Source of the DNA: an uncultured Bacteroidales bacterium
GTDB lineage: Bacteria > Bacteroidota > Bacteroidia > Bacteroidales > VadinHA17
Assembly (NCBI GenBank): GCA_963846335.1
Contig: CAWJVS010000016.1
Location: 128,746 to 192,745 of the forward strand
DNA: 64,000 nt
Direction of reading: 5' to 3'
A program made the translations under genes and the position numbers. The stretch's first letter is position 1. Each line of letters starts with the position of its first letter. Below are positions 3,385 to 49,570 of the stretch, in pieces. The notes beneath the pieces are model-generated. The model did not search any database. It was not told where the DNA came from and saw only the letters and a program-made list of their open reading frames with translations.

Positions 3385-4830
3385 ATGAAAAACTTATCCA
3401 TTCTTTTCTGCTTTATTCTGATTTTTACTGCATGTAACAAAGTTACTCCTCCCGAACCTTACGGCCCGGTACCATCTGAACGGCAACTTGCCTGGCACGA
3501 CATGGAATATTATATGTTTGTTCACTTTACTGTCAATACTTTCACAGATAAGGAGTGGGGTTATGGGGATGAGAAAGAGACTGTTTTCAATCCGTCGCAG
3601 ATCGATTGCAGGCAATGGGCAAAAGTTGCAAGCGATGCAGGTATGAAGGGAATAATAATTACTGCCAAGCATCACGACGGTTTTTGCCTGTGGCCCTCAC
3701 AATTCACAGAACACTCTGTTAAAAATTCAGAATGGAAAGATGGCAAGGGTGATGTTCTTAGGGAACTGCGTACTGCCTGTGATGAATTTGGCCTCAGGTT
3801 CGGAGTATACCTGTCTCCATGGGACAGAAACACTGCCGTATATGGTACACCAGAATACCTGACCTACTACCGTAACCAGCTGCATGAGCTTCTGACCGGG
3901 TATGGGGATATTTTTGAAGTCTGGTTTGACGGCGCAAACGGAGGAGACGGTTATTACGGAGGTGCCCGCGAGTTGAGGAAAATTGATAACAAAACCTATT
4001 ATGACTGGCCTAATACCCATGTTATTGTCAGGGAATTGCAGCCTTCGGCTGTTATGTTCAGTGATGCAGGACCTGATATCAGATGGGTTGGGAATGAAAG
4101 CGGGATGGGCAGCCTTACCAACTGGTGCCTGCTTAAAAAGGATGAAATGTATCCCGGCGGTGATTTTGCGAAGATCCTCGGTGAAGGTCATGCCGATGGT
4201 ACCTCCTGGGTCCCGGCTGAAGTGGATGTATCAATCCGTCCCGGATGGTTTTACCACCAGTCGCAGGATTCACTCGTCAGGTCGCCTGAAAACCTGTTGG
4301 AGCTGTATTATTCCTCAGTGGGCAGGAACAGCAATCTTCTGCTCAATGTTCCACCTGACAGAAGAGGTCTCCTGCATGAAAACGATGTTAAATCCCTGCT
4401 TGCTTTCAGAGAGATGCGTGAGAAGGAGTTTGCAAAGGATCTGGCAAGGGGCATCTCAGCGCAATCATCGCATTACAGGGGAAAGAATTTTATTGCATCT
4501 TTCGTCAATGATGGCGATCCTGAAACTTACTGGGCCACACCTGAGAATGTTAAATCGGCAAACGTTACAATTAATCTTGGAGAAAAAACTGAGGTAAACC
4601 GTGTTTTGATCCAGGAATATGTTAAACTGGGACAGAGAGTCACTAAATATTCGGTTCATGCAATGGTAAACGGCAAATGGGAGCCGGTGGTTGATGGAAC
4701 TACAATAGGACATAAAATTATACGCAAGTTTCCTGTTGTCTCTACTACTGATATAAGGATCTCAATAGATGATTCCAGGGCATGTCCTGCAATATCAAAT
4801 ATTGAACTTTTCAGGGCGCCCGGAGAATAA
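3385..4830 (+). CDS. GH29 alpha-L-fucosidase lipoprotein with C-terminal F5/8 type C (discoidin)-like domain
   Basis: GH29 motifs AKHHDGFCLWPS and YGDIFEVWFDGANGG. The internal Met at 3385 gives a lipoprotein signal MKNLSILFCFILIFTAC. The ORF track start 3325 overlaps a hairpin. Confidence 0.85.
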   Translation: MKNLSILFCFILIFTACNKVTPPEPYGPVPSERQLAWHDMEYYMFVHFTVNTFTDKEWGYGDEKETVFNPSQIDCRQWAKVASDAGMKGIIITAKHHDGFCLWPSQFTEHSVKNSEWKDGKGDVLRELRTACDEFGLRFGVYLSPWDRNTAVYGTPEYLTYYRNQLHELLTGYGDIFEVWFDGANGGDGYYGGARELRKIDNKTYYDWPNTHVIVRELQPSAVMFSDAGPDIRWVGNESGMGSLTNWCLLKKDEMYPGGDFAKILGEGHADGTSWVPAEVDVSIRPGWFYHQSQDSLVRSPENLLELYYSSVGRNSNLLLNVPPDRRGLLHENDVKSLLAFREMREKEFAKDLARGISAQSSHYRGKNFIASFVNDGDPETYWATPENVKSANVTINLGEKTEVNRVLIQEYVKLGQRVTKYSVHAMVNGKWEPVVDGTTIGHKIIRKFPVVSTTDIRISIDDSRACPAISNIELFRAPGE

Positions 4831-4847
4831 AACCTTATTGGACTATT

Positions 4848-6563
4848 ATGAAAAAAGCTTACAGAGTGCTGGTTTTTCTGATCTGTATCTTTATCACCAG
4901 ATCTTTATCCGGGGAGAGCCCTTCTGATGGAAATGGCTATGGCAATCCCTATGTGGTTACTACCTTTGAATGCGCCGGGATTTATTGGAAAACTTCAGTT
5001 TCCGGTCAATGCAGGGTAAAGTACAGGGAATTGAAAAGCACTGCATGGAAGGAGGCACTGGATTTGGTTTATTGCGTTAGTGATGATGAATACAGAGGAT
5101 CAGTTGTCAATCTTAAGCCTGATACGGAATATGAAGCTGAACTGGAAAATGGTATTGTCAAAGATCATATTAGATTCAGGACCAGAAATGATAACTTCCC
5201 AACCGGTAAAACGACTTATATTCCTCCGGGGGAGAGTGATAAGCCAGTTGTTATTACTGAGTCGGGAACACCAGCAAACTACCACCTGGTGACGGTTTCC
5301 CCGGGAAGCAAATCAACCCTGAATCTTGAGAATGCTTCTAAGTATGGAATTGAAATAGATGCGGATTATGTTATTATCCGTGGCGTTGAAATAAGGAATG
5401 CAGCAATTCACGGGATACTTATCAGGCAGAACAGGCATGATATAATTATTGAGCAGTGCCATATTGCCTTCTGGGGAAGAATCGGAGGACCGGCAACATA
5501 CGGAAACCTTGAGGGGGGGTATGACAGCGGCATTTTTGCTGAGGAGAGCACTTCAAATCTAACCATTCAACGCAACCTTATCGAGGATCCCAGAGGTGCA
5601 TCTAATGACTGGGAAGCGGGACACCCCGACGGACCGCAGGGTATTACAATATTTCAGAGCAGGGGAGGCAATGTGATTAGATACAACGAAATTTTATCTT
5701 CCGAGGATCATGGCTTCAATGACGGTATCGGCGGAGGGGAGAATTATTCCTTAACAGGCAATATGAACAGGGATTCGGATATATACGGCAATATAATCAG
5801 GAATGTTTGGGACGATGCAATTGAAAGTGAAGGGGGAAATATGAATGTAAGGATCTGGGGGAATTATTTTCATGATTTCTTCAATGGAATCGCAACTGCC
5901 TCTACCTCCACAGGTCCTCTGTATATCTTCCGCAATGTCGCAGGTGAGAGTCGTACCGGTCATCGCAATTCCTCTGGCGGAGCTTTTATAAAGACTGGCG
6001 AGTCGGAAAAGTTCGGCGGAGGCCGGAGGTTTGTTTTTCACAATACTATTCTCCAGCCCGGAGGTGTTTTTGATGTTTTTACATCTCATCCGAATCCGAA
6101 CTGTGTAACCCGAAACAATATATTTGATGTCAGGGGAAGGCTTGCAACTGACAGGGAAAAACAACCAGCCAGCGATTATGATTTTGATTATTTCTCAGGG
6201 GGAACAAAAGGAAAAAGCGCACTTGAGAACCATAGCATAAGATTTAATCAGACACCATCAGGTACACCCTTATTTGTCCCTTCATACAATCTTGAGTTTT
6301 ATCTGAAATCATCTGTGAATTCCATAAAATGGGGTGCATTTCAGTATGAACTGGGTGAGGAGAAAGTAGAAATCACAGACCCGGTTGTCTGGATACCAAA
6401 TCCATTGATCGATTCAGGAGCTGTAATACCCGGCTTCAATGACGGATATGCCGGAAAGGCTCCTGATCTGGGTGCATTTGAGACAGGTCTGCCACCCCTG
6501 CAATTCGGAAGGCGTGCCTATCGAAACTACAATGATGACCGGGCGCCCTGGGAATTATATTGA
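4848..6563 (+). CDS. Secreted right-handed parallel beta-helix (pectate-lyase fold) protein, specificity unknown
   Basis: Signal peptide MKKAYRVLVFLICIFITRSLSG. An Fn3-like N-terminal segment is followed by repeated beta-helix turns (IIRGVEIRNAAIHGILIRQNRHDIIIEQCHI, NLTIQRNLIED, NVIRYNEI, IYGNIIRNVWDDAIE). It lies next to fucosidase genes. Confidence 0.55.
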   Translation: MKKAYRVLVFLICIFITRSLSGESPSDGNGYGNPYVVTTFECAGIYWKTSVSGQCRVKYRELKSTAWKEALDLVYCVSDDEYRGSVVNLKPDTEYEAELENGIVKDHIRFRTRNDNFPTGKTTYIPPGESDKPVVITESGTPANYHLVTVSPGSKSTLNLENASKYGIEIDADYVIIRGVEIRNAAIHGILIRQNRHDIIIEQCHIAFWGRIGGPATYGNLEGGYDSGIFAEESTSNLTIQRNLIEDPRGASNDWEAGHPDGPQGITIFQSRGGNVIRYNEILSSEDHGFNDGIGGGENYSLTGNMNRDSDIYGNIIRNVWDDAIESEGGNMNVRIWGNYFHDFFNGIATASTSTGPLYIFRNVAGESRTGHRNSSGGAFIKTGESEKFGGGRRFVFHNTILQPGGVFDVFTSHPNPNCVTRNNIFDVRGRLATDREKQPASDYDFDYFSGGTKGKSALENHSIRFNQTPSGTPLFVPSYNLEFYLKSSVNSIKWGAFQYELGEEKVEITDPVVWIPNPLIDSGAVIPGFNDGYAGKAPDLGAFETGLPPLQFGRRAYRNYNDDRAPWELY

Positions 6564-7244: not shown

Positions 7245-7359
7245 AGCTGAAGAGATTATTACAGAATTTTCGATCCTGGAAACAAATTTATTTAAAAAAT
7301 ACGGTTGATTTGTTTCTGTTGGGAAAAATATAATTTAGAGAGAAACATCCCCTTGATCC

Positions 7360-7382
7360 CCCTGCCAAGGCGGGGCAGGCTC
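7360..7382 (-). repeat. GC-rich palindromic element, family GAGCCTGCCCCGCCYTGGCRGGG (copy 1)
   Basis: The reverse complement GAGCCTGCCCCGCCTTGGCAGGG matches 63316..63338 (GAGCCTGCCCCGCCCTGGCGGGG) at 21 of 23 positions. Confidence 0.7.
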
Positions 7383-7406
7383 TTCAAAGGGGGAATCAGT
7401 ATAACT

Positions 7407-7553
7407 AGCACCCAGCACCCAACACCCAGCACCCAGCACCCAGCACCCAGCACCCAGCACCCAACACCCAGCACCCAGCACCCAACACCCAGCACCCAGC
7501 ACCCAACACCCAGCACCCAACACCCAGCACCCAGCACCCAGCACCCAGCACCA
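7407..7553. repeat. Heptanucleotide microsatellite (CACCCAG/CACCCAA), about 20 tandem units
   Basis: Read directly from the sequence. It lies in the 420-bp divergent spacer between the nitroreductase gene (start 7244, minus) and GntP (start 7666, plus). Three overlapping track ORFs here are only translations of the repeat. Confidence 0.95.
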
Positions 7554-7665: not shown

Positions 7666-8998
7666 ATGAACCCATTTATTGCATCGATCCTGGTTGGTAT
7701 TAGCATTATTGCTATAATTATCCTCACATCCAGGCTGAAACTAAAAGCCTTTATCGCTCTCTTCCTGGTATCACTTTTCCTCGCGTTTACGACACTTCCG
7801 GCGAATACGGTAATAAGCACCATAAAGGAAGGATTCGGGAACACCATGGCTTCCATAGGATTCCTGATCATTCTTGGAGCAATTATTGGTATAACTCTTG
7901 ATAAAACGGGAGGAACATTGAGTATTGCCAGATATATTCTTTCAAAAACCGGTGAAAAACGAAGCGTTCAGGCATTGGGTATTACCGGATTCATAACAGG
8001 ATTGCCTATTTTCTGTGATTCAGGCTTCATTATTTTAAGCGGACTTGGGAAATCATTCAGTTTTAAGTCCGGAGTCGCAATGCCCTTTCATGGCCACAGT
8101 ACTTGCCTGCTCACTTTACTCCGTTCATTGTCTTATACCACCACATCCCGGCGCATTGGCCGCGTCAGGTGTTCTACAAGTCAATACAGGCTATCTTATA
8201 CTTATCGGAATAATTTTTGCAATTCCGGGAACTATCTCAGCATATTTATGGAGCAGGTGGATGACAAAAGGTAAAAATTATCCTCCGGCCGGAGATATTA
8301 AGGTTGACGAACAGACAGGAAGCGAAAGTCTGCCCCCTGTTTTTCTTTCATTCCTCCCTGTTGCAGTTCCTTTGCTATTAATAACTTTAAGATCAATATC
8401 CGGCCTTATTGACAGGGGTGAACCCGGGGTTTTTTCAAAGATATTTTATTTACCGGGAGAACCCATACTCGCACTTTCAATTGGAGCTGTTCTTGCCCTT
8501 TTACTACTTAAGAGCCGGACAATTGCCACAATTAATTCGGTGTTCTCGGAAGCTATCGAGAAAGCCGGACCCATCTTAATAGTAACAGCTGCAGGCGGAA
8601 TGTTTGGAATGGTGATTAAAGCAACAGGAACTGGTGAAGTCGTGGGAAGAATGCTGGCGGGAACAAGCATGGGACTTGTTGTACCGTTTCTGATTGCCGT
8701 TGTTATGAAAACTGCCCAGGGCTCTTCAACAGTTGCAATAATTACAACTGCCTCCTTCGTTTCCCCTATGCTGTCAACGCTTGGTCTGGATTCCGAATGG
8801 GGCAGATTGTTTGCCATGATTGCAATGGGAGCCGGATCGATGATAGTATCACATGCCAATGATTCCTATTTCTGGGTAGTTTCCAATTTTTCAGATATTG
8901 AACCGGATACAACCCTAAGGGTATATTCATCCTCAACATTGGTCATGGGTATGGTTGTTTTTGGATGTGTCTGGATAACATCACTCTTTGTTTTATAA
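7666..8998 (+). pseudogene. GntP-family (gluconate/glycerate:H+) permease, one frameshift near 8085-8095 as assembled
   Basis: ORFs 7666..8274 and 8045..8998 join into one GntP sequence (...GVAMPF / MATVLACSLYSVHCLIPPHPGALAASG...). It is paralogous to the intact GntP at 25363..26682. Confidence 0.8.
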
Positions 8999-9245
8999 TA
9001 ATTCAGCCTTTATTATGTAATTTTTCACAATTGTAGAAAGTTTCATAAAATGATGAATTTAGTTTTCATTGTATTCATTAAAACCCCCTACCCGACCTTC
9101 CCCCTATATTTGTGCCATTTGGCAATATAGGTTAGAAAAAGAGTTCTTTGACATAATTGTTAAATTTGTTGATATGATTTGTGGGATGAAGCGAAGGCGT
9201 AGCCGAAGCGTAATCCCACAAATCAGAGCTTTAAAATTACTATTT

Positions 9246-10046
9246 ATGATCAACAATTCTTCACTCCAGAAATGGGATCGTCTAAAGCAGAAGCAACTAG
9301 ATACCCAGTTTGTTAACAGTCTCATTCAGGGTATGAACTGCTCGCAGTTTGAAGCCAAAGCTATCCTGAATGCTGTCTATGATACCTATCGGCCATTCTT
9401 TGATAACTCCGGGGCTATGAAGCCGGGACAAGTTCTCTTTGAAGTAGTCTCGTTCGAGAATGGCGCACAAAAAAAGCTTTCTGACTGCAAGATGGTCTCA
9501 GTGGTACTTACCCTTGATGCAGGAGAAGAAGATCTTCAGGTTAAAGAGCATCACGGTGTTCAGGGCTTACGACGTCATCGGATGGAGCGAATAGTAAACG
9601 AAGCTTTCCAGCAAGGCGGGCTGCTTACCGTTGAGGACATTGCTAACCGGCTTCTAAACTGTGGTGAGCGGACTCTCTGCAGGGACATCAAAGCTTTTAA
9701 GGAGTTGGGGATAGTTCTTCCTCTTCGCTCTACGATCCGTGACATGGGTAAGTCTGTCACACACCGTTCTCTGATTGTTAAGCAGTGGCTTTCCGGGAAA
9801 GAATACTCCGAGATTGCCAGGGCAACACATCACAGCATTGATGCGGTGGCTAACTATGTTGACAAGTTTAAAAGGGTGGTTTGTCTGGCTAAGAACAACT
9901 ATGAGATAAAAACCATAGCATTCTTAGTAAAACTATCCCCCAGTCTTACTCAGGAGTATTACGATCTGCATCAGACAATAGATGCAGTACCCCATCGGAG
10001 AGAAGAGTTGGATGATCTTATAAAAAAAAATCGACAGACCATTTAA
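9246..10046 (+). CDS. DUF1670-like multi-HTH protein (paralogue 1)
   Basis: Shares the core (R)M(E/I)R(I)..EA(F/Y)QQG(G/A)(L/V)L(T/S)..D(I/L).., DMG(K/T)(S/T)(V/L)TH(R/K) and a HS(I/Q)(D/P)AV(A/D)(N/K)Y(V/L)(D/K)(K/D)F(K/N)RV helix-turn-helix with the next gene. The DUF1670 assignment is from memory. The start is set at Met 9246, because the track start 9069 runs through a repeat and a hairpin. Confidence 0.7.
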   Translation: MINNSSLQKWDRLKQKQLDTQFVNSLIQGMNCSQFEAKAILNAVYDTYRPFFDNSGAMKPGQVLFEVVSFENGAQKKLSDCKMVSVVLTLDAGEEDLQVKEHHGVQGLRRHRMERIVNEAFQQGGLLTVEDIANRLLNCGERTLCRDIKAFKELGIVLPLRSTIRDMGKSVTHRSLIVKQWLSGKEYSEIARATHHSIDAVANYVDKFKRVVCLAKNNYEIKTIAFLVKLSPSLTQEYYDLHQTIDAVPHRREELDDLIKKNRQTI

Positions 10047-10060
10047 TCCAGGAAACAGGA

Positions 10061-10816
10061 ATGATACCAACAGCATCATCAGTAAAACATTACAGTTCTG
10101 CACATGACAGGTTCCTGAAGCCTGCTATCGTAAACTTCTTTGAACGCGAATTCTGTGCTATGTTTGGTCCTGTTGTAAGAGAAAACATTGCTGATGCTCT
10201 TATCGATCTTTTTAACTCTCTTTGCCCTGAATCATCCAGATTAAAACCTGGACAGATAGTCTGGAACGCTCTGGATAAAAGAACCAGGGCAGATAGTGAG
10301 AAGCGCCGGTATAAACCAGTAATACTATCTCTGGTAACTGATGATGATGTCTCAATGTTCGAAAAAGGAACTTCAATCTCAACTACACGAAAGAATGTTA
10401 TGGCCCGAATGATTAGAGAAGCCTATCAACAAGGAGCTGTATTGTCTACAAGAGATTTAAGCCTGTTACTGGTATCAAGTGCAGCTTATCTATCTCAGTT
10501 AAGGATCGAATATGAGAAGGAACATAAAACAATACTTCCTCATACCGGAGTCATTCATGACATGGGAACTACTTTAACTCATAAAAGAATCATAATCTAT
10601 AAACATGTCGTTGAAAAGAAAGATCCTTCAATTGTTGCGAGAGAAACAAATCACTCTCAACCTGCTGTTGATAAATACCTTAAAGACTTTAACAGAGTAA
10701 AAACACTAGTAAATGACAATAAGGACATTGATTTTATCCATCACACAACAAACATGTCAAAACCAGTGATTAAACAGTATCTTCAAATTATTAACAACTA
10801 TGTCAAAGAACGTTAA
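10061..10816 (+). CDS. DUF1670-like multi-HTH protein (paralogue 2)
   Basis: 251-aa ORF 15 nt after paralogue 1 with the same domain order (RMIREAYQQGAVLSTRDLSLLL..., HDMGTTLTHKRIII..., NHSQPAVDKYLKDFNRV). Confidence 0.75.
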   Translation: MIPTASSVKHYSSAHDRFLKPAIVNFFEREFCAMFGPVVRENIADALIDLFNSLCPESSRLKPGQIVWNALDKRTRADSEKRRYKPVILSLVTDDDVSMFEKGTSISTTRKNVMARMIREAYQQGAVLSTRDLSLLLVSSAAYLSQLRIEYEKEHKTILPHTGVIHDMGTTLTHKRIIIYKHVVEKKDPSIVARETNHSQPAVDKYLKDFNRVKTLVNDNKDIDFIHHTTNMSKPVIKQYLQIINNYVKER

Positions 10817-10858
10817 ATATATTTTCTTTAAAACCCTTGCAATGTCAAATGACATTAA

Positions 10859-10917
10859 CAGGGGGGAAGGGGAAACCCATCATTTCCCCCTTGGGGGAAA
10901 ATGAAAGGGGGTAAAAT
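10859..10917 (+). repeat. G-rich REP-like element, family AGGGGGAAGG..TTTCCC..TTGGGGGAAA..AGGGG(G)T(T)AAAA (copy A)
   Basis: Aligns along its length with 28125..28176. It contains internal hairpins GGGGAAA/TTTCCCC and CCCCC-TT-GGGGG. Confidence 0.7.
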
Positions 10918-10999
10918 CCTAAAATCCATCCAGATTGTTTCATAGAAATACTGAAGTTTATAAATATTGTAACAGTATACTTGCTTTATAACTCTAAAT

Positions 11000-12316
11000 A
11001 TGAATAGCAGAATTGTTGCTGAACAGATATTTCTTGCCGGAGTAGAGCGGGTCCTCCCTGACAGATTGATAAGCATGGCAATGTATTTGGAGGATAACAG
11101 TCTGTTTATAAACGATTTTAGCTTCAATCTTGATTCGGTTCGAAACATCTATGTGATAGGCGCAGGAAAAGCAAGTGCGCTAATGGGAGCGGAGGTTGAG
11201 AGAATTCTGGGAGAGAGGATAACAGCCGGGCATATTGTTGTCAAATATGGTCATTCGTGTAAACTGAAAAAGATCACAGTTACTGAGGCAGGCCATCCCG
11301 TGCCTGACGCAAACGGCTTCAGAGCTACCGGATCAATACTCGGAATCGCTGCCATGGCTGATAGTAATGACCTTGTAATATGTCTTCTGTCCGGAGGCGG
11401 ATCAGCCCTTCTTGCAGATTTTCCGGAAGGATCAACTCCTGATGAAATGATGACGATGAATGATCTTCTTGTACAGAGTGGTTCCTCAATTAATGAGATC
11501 AATACTGTACGCAAACATCTCTCATATATAAAAGGAGGCCAGCTGGCAAAAGCAGTTTATCCCGGCACACTGGTCAGTCTTATATTGTCGGATGTGACAG
11601 GTGATCCTCTTGATGTGATTGCCTCCGGACCAACAGTTCCTGATCCCTCAACTTTTAAGCAGGCTCTGGAAGTTCTCAGCAAATACAATCTTACAGTAAA
11701 TACACCTGGTGGAGTGATAAATTACCTTAGTGAAGGAGCTCTGGGAAGAAGGTCTGAAACACCGAAACCATCTGATCCTGTCTTTGATAGAACTTTCAAT
11801 ATCCTGATCGGTAATAACAAATTGGCTCTTGAAGCGGCTGTCAGAAAAGCTGTCGGTTTAGAACTGAATGCTGAAATTATCACTGACAGGGTTGTAGGCG
11901 ACATTGCTGAAGTTGCTGAATACATAGTTGACACGGCATTTAAATATCAAAGTGACAAAAATGTTAAAAAACCTGCATGTCTTATTTTCGGGGGAGAGCC
12001 AACGGTAAAAGTTACCGGCAATGGTTCAGGAGGAAGAAACCAGCATCTGGCGTTGCATTGTGCAGGACTTCTGAGAACTCATATGGGAATTACTGTACTC
12101 TCAGCAGGTACTGACGGAAATGATGGGCCAACATCTGCAGCGGGGGCAGTGGTGGATTACGAAACTTACGATGCTGCTGTTATGAAGGGATTCATCCCTG
12201 AAGAATATCTCGGAAATTTTGATTCATTCAATTTTTTCAGAAGGGATGGAGGGCATATAATTACCGGACCTACCATGACCAATGTTATGGATATTGTTGT
12301 TGCAATAGTGGAGTGA
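11000..12316 (+). CDS. Glycerate 2-kinase / hydroxypyruvate reductase-like protein (DUF4147 + MOFRL family)
   Basis: Characteristic motifs IGAGKAS, LLSGGGSALL, GGEPTV.VTG.G.GGRNQ and SAGTDG.DGP in a 438-aa ORF. Confidence 0.8.
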   Translation: MNSRIVAEQIFLAGVERVLPDRLISMAMYLEDNSLFINDFSFNLDSVRNIYVIGAGKASALMGAEVERILGERITAGHIVVKYGHSCKLKKITVTEAGHPVPDANGFRATGSILGIAAMADSNDLVICLLSGGGSALLADFPEGSTPDEMMTMNDLLVQSGSSINEINTVRKHLSYIKGGQLAKAVYPGTLVSLILSDVTGDPLDVIASGPTVPDPSTFKQALEVLSKYNLTVNTPGGVINYLSEGALGRRSETPKPSDPVFDRTFNILIGNNKLALEAAVRKAVGLELNAEIITDRVVGDIAEVAEYIVDTAFKYQSDKNVKKPACLIFGGEPTVKVTGNGSGGRNQHLALHCAGLLRTHMGITVLSAGTDGNDGPTSAAGAVVDYETYDAAVMKGFIPEEYLGNFDSFNFFRRDGGHIITGPTMTNVMDIVVAIVE

Positions 12317-12373: not shown

Positions 12374-12528
12374 TTAACCACTGAGTTGCACAGAGTAACA
12401 CGGAGTAGTAACACGAAGTAGGAACACGGAGTAGGAACACGGGGTAAACAGCTCTACTAAAGTTGAATAACTGAGTTGCTGGTTTAACAGTGTAACTCCG
12501 CATTTACACCGTATAACTCCGTGGTTAA
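12374..12528. repeat. 155-bp MITE-like element with TTAACCAC(T/G)GAG terminal inverted repeats and four internal 13-bp units (GTAACACGGAGTA-like)
   Basis: The left end TTAACCACTGAGTT pairs with the right end AACTCCGTGGTTAA. Internal tandem units span about 12395..12446. A related element lies at 63129..63272. Confidence 0.7.
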
Positions 12529-28103: not shown

Positions 28104-28176
28104 TACCCCATCCCAGCCTTTCCCAGGGGGAAGGAGCTTATTATTTCCCTTGGGGGAAACAGGAAAGGGGTTAAAA
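28104..28176. repeat. G-rich REP-like element (copy B, itself an imperfect palindrome)
   Basis: The right half AGGGGGAAGGAGCTTATTATTTCCCTTGGGGGAAACAGGAAAGGGGTTAAAA aligns with 10859..10917. The left arm TTACCCCATCCCAGCCTTTCCC is its imperfect reverse complement. Confidence 0.7.
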
Positions 28177-49408: not shown

Positions 49409-49475
49409 CAGCCTGAGTGCTGAATCTGATTTTGAACATTTATTAACTCAGCCAGTTGTCATTTTGCCTCACCCC

Positions 49476-49570
49476 AACCCCTCTCCCCGGGGAGAGGGGC
49501 AAAACCCGTATCATCGCTTACCCCTTCTCCCCCGGGAGAAGGGGGCAGGGGGATGAGGCGGATTGAAAGC
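49476..49570. repeat. GC-rich double-palindrome element in the hydG leader region
   Basis: Perfect 22-bp palindrome CCCCTCTCCCCGGGGAGAGGGG (49488..49509). Second palindrome CCCCTTCTCCC-CC-GGGAGAAGGGG (49531..49554). Outer arms GCCTCACCCC / GGGGATGAGGC. Confidence 0.85.

Follow-up and report, generated by a model that had tools for sequence, protein, structure and literature searches.

The 64,000-nucleotide stretch of an uncultured Bacteroidales bacterium analysed here (contig CAWJVS010000016.1, positions 128,746 to 192,745 of the forward strand; hereafter the window) contains, at positions 9105–10859, what is probably one copy of an autonomous insertion sequence (IS)-like mobile element; it carries just two genes, ORF A and ORF B, which encode paralogs of DUF1670 (PF07900), a Pfam family without assigned function. 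The element moves as a 1.75-kb unit, is multicopy, and has been recently active in several phyla; it most likely represents an IS family that has not been described before. The copy in the window sits in hairpin 1 of a repetitive extragenic palindromic (REP)-like repeat, which is itself inserted between gntP, a sugar-acid permease gene, and a glycerate kinase gene.

Boundaries and insertion site of the element

The element was delimited by blastn comparison of positions 8900–11100 with 37 genome loci, chosen as encoding relatives of ORF A. The comparison reveals a conserved block extending from approximately 9100 to approximately 10866, outside which the sequences are unrelated. In alignments of the ends, conservation begins at TATATTTGTGCC and stops at …GACATTA(A/T)C, such that the 1,755-bp element of the window starts with TATATTTGTGCC and finishes with GACATTAAC; the first 20 nt are invariant among 22 copies. 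The element, its genes and the repeat in which it lies are as follows.

9105 to 10859, + strand: IS-like mobile element of 1,755 bp (TATATTTGTGCCATTTGGCA … AATGTCAAATGACATTAAC), conserved in 30 loci whose flanks are unrelated
9246 to 10046, + strand: ORF A, DUF1670 protein of 266 aa (PF07900, E = 2.7e-52)
10061 to 10816, + strand: ORF B, DUF1670 paralog of 251 aa (PF07900, E = 3.8e-50)
9078 to 9104, + strand: left part of the split REP-like target repeat, comprising the outer arm TTAAAACCCCCT and the C-rich 5′ arm of hairpin 1 (CCTTCCCCC), outside the mobile element
10860 to 10917, + strand: right part of the split target repeat, in which loop A and the G-rich 3′ arm complete hairpin 1 and are followed by hairpin 2 (TTTCCCCCTTGGGGGAAA) and the outer arm AGGGGGTAAAA
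28104 to 28176, + strand: intact member of this REP-like family, taken to show how an empty target looks

Empty and filled sites can be compared directly at locus L009, which carries 94-nt units in tandem, with GCCCCCCC-TGT-GGGGGGG (a C7/G7 palindrome) in every unit. The filled unit reads GCCCCCCC|TATATTTG…GGCATTATC|TGTGGGGGGG, the adjacent units being intact, and the empty neighbouring units read GCCCCCCCTGTGGGGGGG. By this comparison the insertion is exact and lacks a target-site duplication, save for an ambiguity of at most 1 nt. A second comparison of this kind is provided by an empty hairpin in L008 and the corresponding filled sites in L110 and L111. The original prediction had looked to related junctions for the insertion boundaries; it was the cross-locus conservation, together with the L009 comparison transferred to the window, that placed them at 9105 and 10859. 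The L009 array (3560–3860 and 5612–5940) borders the element on both sides, and recurs in L024, from the same metagenome-assembled genome (MAG).

The C-rich motif at 9078–9105, the G-rich motif at 10859–10917 and the solo copy at 28104–28176 are all present as first described, and the physical link of the gene pair to a G/C-rich palindromic repeat family stands. The two motifs had, however, been read as inverted repeats bracketing a cassette. When positions 9070–9104 are joined to 10860–10930, the product aligns with the solo copy over approximately 88 nt and has a folding energy of −24 kcal/mol; the two ‘inverted REPs’ are therefore halves of a single REP-like repeat, which consists of an outer stem around two G/C-rich hairpins and is cut at the tip of hairpin 1. 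Besides the window, L020 (an Ignavibacteriaceae bin) and L022, and in part L008, have the element in this composite repeat at the identical tip. A direct match of TTAAAACCC (9078 / 10828) was considered as a target duplication and rejected, since only one of its two copies falls within the element, and since by our estimate approximately one such 13-mer pair with one mismatch is expected in 2.2 kb; the initial suspicion that this 9-mer match may be due to chance was well placed. Further G/C-rich composite palindromic repeats occur in the window at 49465–49560 and at approximately 7345–7400 (CCTCACCCC…CCCCTCTCCCCGGGGAGAGGGG…GGGGGATGAGG); these are similar to the hairpins entered in L016, L017 and L019, and could be empty targets.

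The gene pair is flanked upstream by a GntP permease gene and downstream by a glycerate kinase gene (DUF4147 and MOFRL). In 48 related metagenome loci the gap between gntP and the kinase gene is 8–195 nt, mostly approximately 50 nt, compared with 2,001 nt in the window, and a DUF1670 gene is present at none of the 48 junctions (0/48); the pair is therefore an insertion, as had been proposed. A search of the metagenomes for the exact empty-site sequence gave no match, and it is the related gntP–kinase junctions that were compared instead. These junctions also bear on whether ORF A and ORF B might be transcription factors of the usual kind, serving the host's gntP–glycerate kinase operon, with the repeats incidental. 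Their helix-turn-helix (HTH) modules and their position between two functionally linked genes would fit such a role, but related junctions lack the pair, the same pair occurs in many unrelated contexts and in multiple copies, and profile searches, which had been foreseen as a possible source of support for ordinary transcription factors, returned HTH family matches below the Pfam thresholds only; we consider this explanation scarcely credible. The GntP permease gene is broken by a frameshift into the overlapping ORFs 7666..8274 and 8045..8998 (window 7666–8998), which span Pfam model positions 4–134 and 139–439, respectively; this reflects either a pseudogene or a sequencing error.

Mobility and hairpin-tip targets

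One Acidobacteriota chromosome contains three copies of the element that are 99.9% identical over 1,781 bp, and two Bacteroidales MAGs contain two copies each. An identical ORF A protein sits between at least seven different gene pairs, the neighbouring genes differing at every site. The element is thus a discrete unit with conserved ends found at several non-orthologous sites, as is general for insertion sequences, and the more cautious suggestion of the original prediction, a small integrated cassette, was essentially right. A total of 1,417 homologs of ORF A were found, most of them on contigs of 1.5–2.2 kb, as is typical of a repeat that breaks assemblies. The host bins comprise Bacteroidota, Ignavibacteria, Acidobacteriota, Proteobacteria, Acidimicrobiia, Bacillales and Methanomicrobiales, although the Bacillales and the (archaeal) Methanomicrobiales members are short contigs and could be binning errors. 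For plasmids and viruses, a tblastn search of PLSDB gave no match and IMG/VR contained no match to the left end.

Each of the 37 loci has ORF B following ORF A, with both genes intact in approximately 30, and the ratios of non-synonymous to synonymous substitution rates (Ka/Ks; 0.04–0.08 for ORF A and 0.05–0.10 for ORF B) indicate strong purifying selection on both. This strict linkage, together with the selection, suggests that the two genes serve mobility. Truncated or decayed copies also occur: the 5′ part is missing from L025, L026 and L036, and numerous stop codons interrupt L035. The contigs L110, L111 and L112 share a left or a right flank in mixed combinations (DUF6057…GH18, GH2…AP_endonuc_2 and GH2…GH18), which stem either from chimeric assembly across the repeated element or from recombination among its copies.

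The target was analysed by joining 18 nt from each flank and folding the product, for the 22 insertions with both flanks at hand, relative to local controls. The energy of the joined-flank hairpin falls within the lowest 5% of the controls for 19 of the 22 insertions (median fraction 0.008). The junction is always located directly after the C-rich 5′ arm and in one orientation, i.e. CCCCC^N1-4GGGGG; clear examples of hairpin-tip targets are L014, which reads ATTGCACCCC^AGCGGGGTGCAAT, and L019, with a 26-nt perfect palindrome. The ten further places with an identical ORF A protein all read …GTCCCCC|IS|N1-3GGGGGACTT…, the empty form of this hairpin being that found in L008. A distant clade (50% protein identity) in Acidobacteriota follows the same rule with a different sequence, GCGCC^NNGGCGC. 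Across the approximately 35 independent insertions looked at, from Bacteroidota, Acidobacteriota, Proteobacteria and other phyla, the flank sequence past the tip varies among loci; the hairpins are therefore targets and no part of the element.

These observations contradict a system of REP elements and REP-associated tyrosine transposases (RAYT), as originally envisaged, in which the DUF1670 pair, flanked by inverted repeats, would mobilise the G-rich repeat family. The pair does have G/C-rich palindromic repeats to its left and right, in the window as at many other loci, and the window does contain a solo repeat copy. The flanks are, however, one repeat in two halves; they vary between copies, whereas the 1.75-kb unit with its own ends is constant; and in L009 empty repeat units adjoin the filled one. 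Since this unit enters many different hairpins, including unrelated repeats (CCCCC/GGGGG tips, and GCGCC/GGCGC in Acidobacteriota), the repeat is target and not cargo, and the pair is not a mobilisation module for it. RAYT/REP systems comprise HUH Y1 transposases and REP-like palindromes (PMC3333891), and in them the cognate repeats are carried with the gene; no HUH domain was found in ORF A or ORF B. We regard a RAYT/REP arrangement as very improbable.

Entry into REP-type palindromes has closer parallels among insertion sequences. IS1397 and ISKpn1 (IS3 family) insert into the loop or centre of intergenic REP-type palindromes, as the element does, but differ from it in having DDE transposases, short target duplications and classical terminal inverted repeats; for the element, neither Pfam nor the structure search revealed an RNase-H-like DDE domain, and L009 shows no duplication. 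The targeting of REPs by ISs is a wider phenomenon, and ISPa11, ISPpu9 and ISPpu10 are inserted orientation-specifically into REP or palindromic repeats (PMC1525189).

Element ends and a putative junction promoter

Beyond what the original prediction had described, the element contains a 21-nt inverted repeat, subterminal hairpins and a hairpin in the 5′ untranslated region (5′-UTR).

9103 to 9131, + strand: left-end subterminal hairpin, CCTATAT-TTG-TGCCATTTGGCA-ATATAGG, the first 2 nt being flank; DNA fold z = −2.6
9105 to 9110, + strand: −10-like half of the putative junction promoter, TATATT
9143 to 9163, + strand: left arm of the internal 21-nt inverted repeat, GTTCTTTGACATAATTGTTAA, with almost no variation among the aligned copies
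9176 to 9224, + strand: conserved 5′-UTR hairpin with a 12-bp stem and a nearly invariant internal loop, GAAGCGAA-GGC-GTA-GCC-GAAGCGTA; fold z = −6.2
10791 to 10811, − strand: right arm of the internal 21-nt inverted repeat, overlapping the 3′ end of ORF B
10837 to 10859, + strand: right end, TTGCAA (−35-like half) followed by a 17-nt spacer with the palindrome AATGTCAAATGACATT (10841–10856) and terminal AAC

The arms of the 21-nt inverted repeat match at 20 of 21 positions (95% complementary; zero such matches are expected by chance), and the repeat is a candidate binding site for the DUF1670 proteins. Motifs of the TTTGACA/TGTCAAA type recur at both ends of the element, as would be expected of binding sites for HTH proteins. 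The inverted repeat (9143 / 10811) was also considered as the termini of the element and rejected, since conservation runs 38 nt further to the left and 48 nt further to the right.

The 5′-UTR hairpin shows compensatory changes at 8 of its 18 pairs among the 22 copies, and the clade of 50% identity has an analogous hairpin with a similar inner loop; no family in Rfam was matched. Just upstream of this hairpin, in the conserved left end, TAAATTTG (window 9161–9168) fits the Bacteroides −7 box pattern TAnnTTTG and is possibly a resident promoter, in which case the mRNA would have the hairpin at its 5′ end. No sigma-70-like promoter was found inside the left end on the + strand.

When the last 40 nt of the element are set before its first 20 nt, the predicted abutted junction reads …AATGTCAAATGACATTAAC|TATATTTGTGCCATTTGG… and has the geometry of a promoter: TTG(C/T)AA-17-TATATT in the Bacteroidales clade and TTGACA-18-TATGAT in the other clade, with the −10 hexamer beginning at nucleotide 1 of the element in both. 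Among control random 60-mers of the same loci, at least 9 of 12 promoter matches occur in 3.7% and at least 10 of 12 in 0.6%. The Bacteroidales junction can also be read as TTG-N20-TAtaTTTG, which matches the Bacteroides −33/−7 consensus. IS circles form junction promoters; by analogy, the geometry observed here suggests a circular or end-abutted intermediate.

The IS110/IS1111 elements (for example IS621, ISPpu9/10 and ISPa11), which employ bridge-RNA recombinases, share several of these features. They enter defined, often palindromic, sequences in a specific orientation, with no or minimal target-site duplication, and, like the element, they have no long terminal inverted repeats. IS110 elements are reported to form a circular intermediate that rebuilds a promoter, and to have a structured non-coding RNA beside the recombinase gene (PMC11208160). 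For the element, site- and orientation-specific insertion without duplication is observed, whereas the circle, the junction promoter and the structured RNA are all three predicted from its sequence. The proteins differ: the IS110 enzymes have a DEDD/RuvC-like or Tnp domain, in place of which the element has two multi-HTH DUF1670 paralogs, with no Pfam match to DEDD_Tnp_IS110 (PF01548) or Transposase_20 (PF02371) and none to the NCBIfam transposase models. The hairpin differs too, in that, compared with the IS110 guide RNA, its loop is invariant and on inspection is complementary neither to the C5/G5 targets nor to the element ends; a role as a bridge-RNA-like guide is not supported. The best-supported view is that the element behaves like IS110 and the REP-targeting ISs, and that its proteins are unrelated to any known transposase.

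The absence of a target-site duplication, the insertion just 3′ of a short C-rich stretch with a fixed strand and orientation, the imperfect palindromes near both ends and the hairpin-forming targets would also fit transposition of single-stranded DNA, i.e. an IS200/IS605-like ‘peel and paste’ process in which the target is a hairpin extruded in single-stranded DNA, such as the lagging-strand template, and the subterminal hairpins are recognised on one strand. The element is indeed similar to IS200/IS605 and RAYT systems in its subterminal hairpins, lack of target duplication, entry 3′ of a short specific sequence and association with REP-like palindromes. This likeness is one of behaviour only: Pfam and NCBIfam scans found no Y1_Tnp (PF01797), TnpA or TnpB, no HUH/Y1 motif was found, and the structure search gave no HUH fold. 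Moreover, the geometry of the junction promoter favours a double-stranded circle, the 21-nt inverted repeat and the TTTGACA sites look like double-stranded sites for HTH proteins, and a search within the element for a ‘guide’ that could pair with the flank was inconsistent among loci. On balance, single-stranded transposition appears unlikely. In this search, a flank-complementary guide beside the left-end hairpin fits L017, L018 and L019, but not L016, L002, L011, L013, L015 or the whole P0016 subfamily, and was rejected.

The DUF1670 proteins and the source of catalysis

ORF A and ORF B are, as first described, adjacent paralogs (26% identity, E = 5e-25) belonging to DUF1670. With membership of PF07900 taken as a match to the profile hidden Markov model above the gathering threshold (25 bits), they score 177.7 and 170.7 bits, respectively, each covering nearly the whole model. 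The family forms 1,218 clusters at 50% identity, from bacteria and archaea; in the literature searched there was no mention of DUF1670 or PF07900, including any tie to a mobile element with hairpin targeting. The AlphaFold2 model of ORF A (mean pLDDT, the predicted local distance difference test score, of 89; built from 72 diverse sequences) predicts N-terminal helices, a β-hairpin and a long helix, followed by three HTH-like units. A flexible conserved loop, …RDMGxSxTH[KR]…, is common to both proteins; if a functional site is to be singled out, this loop would, speculatively, be the first choice. A tyrosine-recombinase-like H…H…Y arrangement in ORF A (H173, H196 and Y204) was examined and rejected, as H196–Y204 corresponds to the recognition helix of an ordinary HTH, …HSxxSxxRY… in ORF A aligning with …VSxxTVxRW….

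Fusion proteins with two or three tandem DUF1670 units exist in nature (these and one DUF1670–GGDEF fusion make up the set P0158, P0159, P0173 and P0177, of approximately 930–950 aa, P0218, of 532 aa, and P0255), which supports the idea that ORF A and ORF B work together. In the mechanism that we propose, the two proteins would form a heterodimer, as such fusions suggest, and would bind, at either end, the sites of the TTTGACA/TGTCAAA type and the subterminal palindromes. The element would then pass through a circle with abutted ends, in which the junction promoter, with its −35 box supplied by the right end and its −10 box by nucleotides 1–6 of the left end, would drive both genes together with the structured 5′-UTR. 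Finally, the complex would integrate the junction at the tip of a hairpin or cruciform by cleavage and joining, presumably with no staggered cuts.

As to which protein cuts and joins the DNA, the balance tips slightly towards the DUF1670 proteins themselves doing the chemistry. That the A/B heterodimer represents a recombinase or transposase of a new class, with no relation to the DDE, DEDD, HUH, serine and tyrosine enzymes and joining the circle at hairpin or cruciform tips without target duplication, is a possibility that we advance tentatively. Were this so, the candidate active-site residues would be the loop I-R/H-D-M-G-x-S/T-x-T-H-K/R (ORF A 164–174), D96 and R109/R115.

The alternative is that the element is mobile but non-autonomous, the DUF1670 proteins only binding DNA (at the ends, in target choice or in regulation), and a host enzyme or a transposase encoded elsewhere, such as a Y1/HUH enzyme, an IS110-type enzyme or a Xer-type recombinase, cutting and joining. 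The proteins resemble multi-HTH DNA binders with no catalytic fold, and the N-terminal part of ORF A has a weak IHF/HU-like resemblance, both of which favour this alternative. So does precedent, since elements using enzymes supplied in trans include the Xer-exploiting elements and the tnpB-only derivatives of IS200/IS605. However, no second gene travels with the pair, the neighbours being different at each site, and the range of very different phyla, with an archaeal bin, would require the partner to be universal. The strong purifying selection on both full-length proteins, and the presence of intact, identical copies inside one genome, likewise argue against it. We consider catalysis in trans to be somewhat doubtful.

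Several points nonetheless weigh against an autonomous element of a new family as we describe it. The search of the ORF A model against the Protein Data Bank (PDB) with Foldseek gave a best E value of 0.3, the hits being HTH regulators and, weakly, IHF/HU proteins; among PDB sequences, a profile search returned winged-helix regulators only; and scans of Pfam (cut-off E ≤ 0.1), NCBIfam, PHROGs and PADLOC found DUF1670 and sub-threshold HTH matches only, with no catalytic domain. These methods and the AlphaFold2 model agree with the initial description of multiple HTH-like units and no recognisable catalytic domain, and the conserved residues are largely those usual in HTH motifs. The putative circle is deduced from the promoter geometry of ends abutted in silico. 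With regard to the targets, flank complementarity is weak or lacking in 3 of the 22 insertions (L011, L013 and L015), the right flank of L007 has no G-run, and copies inside a clade are related, such that the hairpin and promoter counts are not fully independent. The element may also already stand in ISfinder.

The results offer DUF1670 a concrete role that can be put to the test, namely that of a gene pair in a mobile element whose ends and target rule are defined and which probably passes through a circle. If the proteins are enzymes, they would represent a new chemistry or fold for DNA transposition with structure-specific targeting of hairpin tips, of interest both for mobile-DNA biology and for genome-insertion tools. 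Even if catalysis is supplied in trans, the element constitutes an unannotated IS family that breaks metagenome assemblies, and it marks REP-like hairpins in Bacteroidota as hot spots of transposition.

The DUF1670–GGDEF fusion hints that some members of the family have been recruited to host signalling. Short intergenic tandem arrays, (AGCACCC) × 21 and a 13-nt unit × 3.8, are present in the window at 7407–7552 and 12397–12446, respectively; comparable short arrays lie beside the element at other loci, namely in L006 and, as GGTTGAG repeats, in L009.

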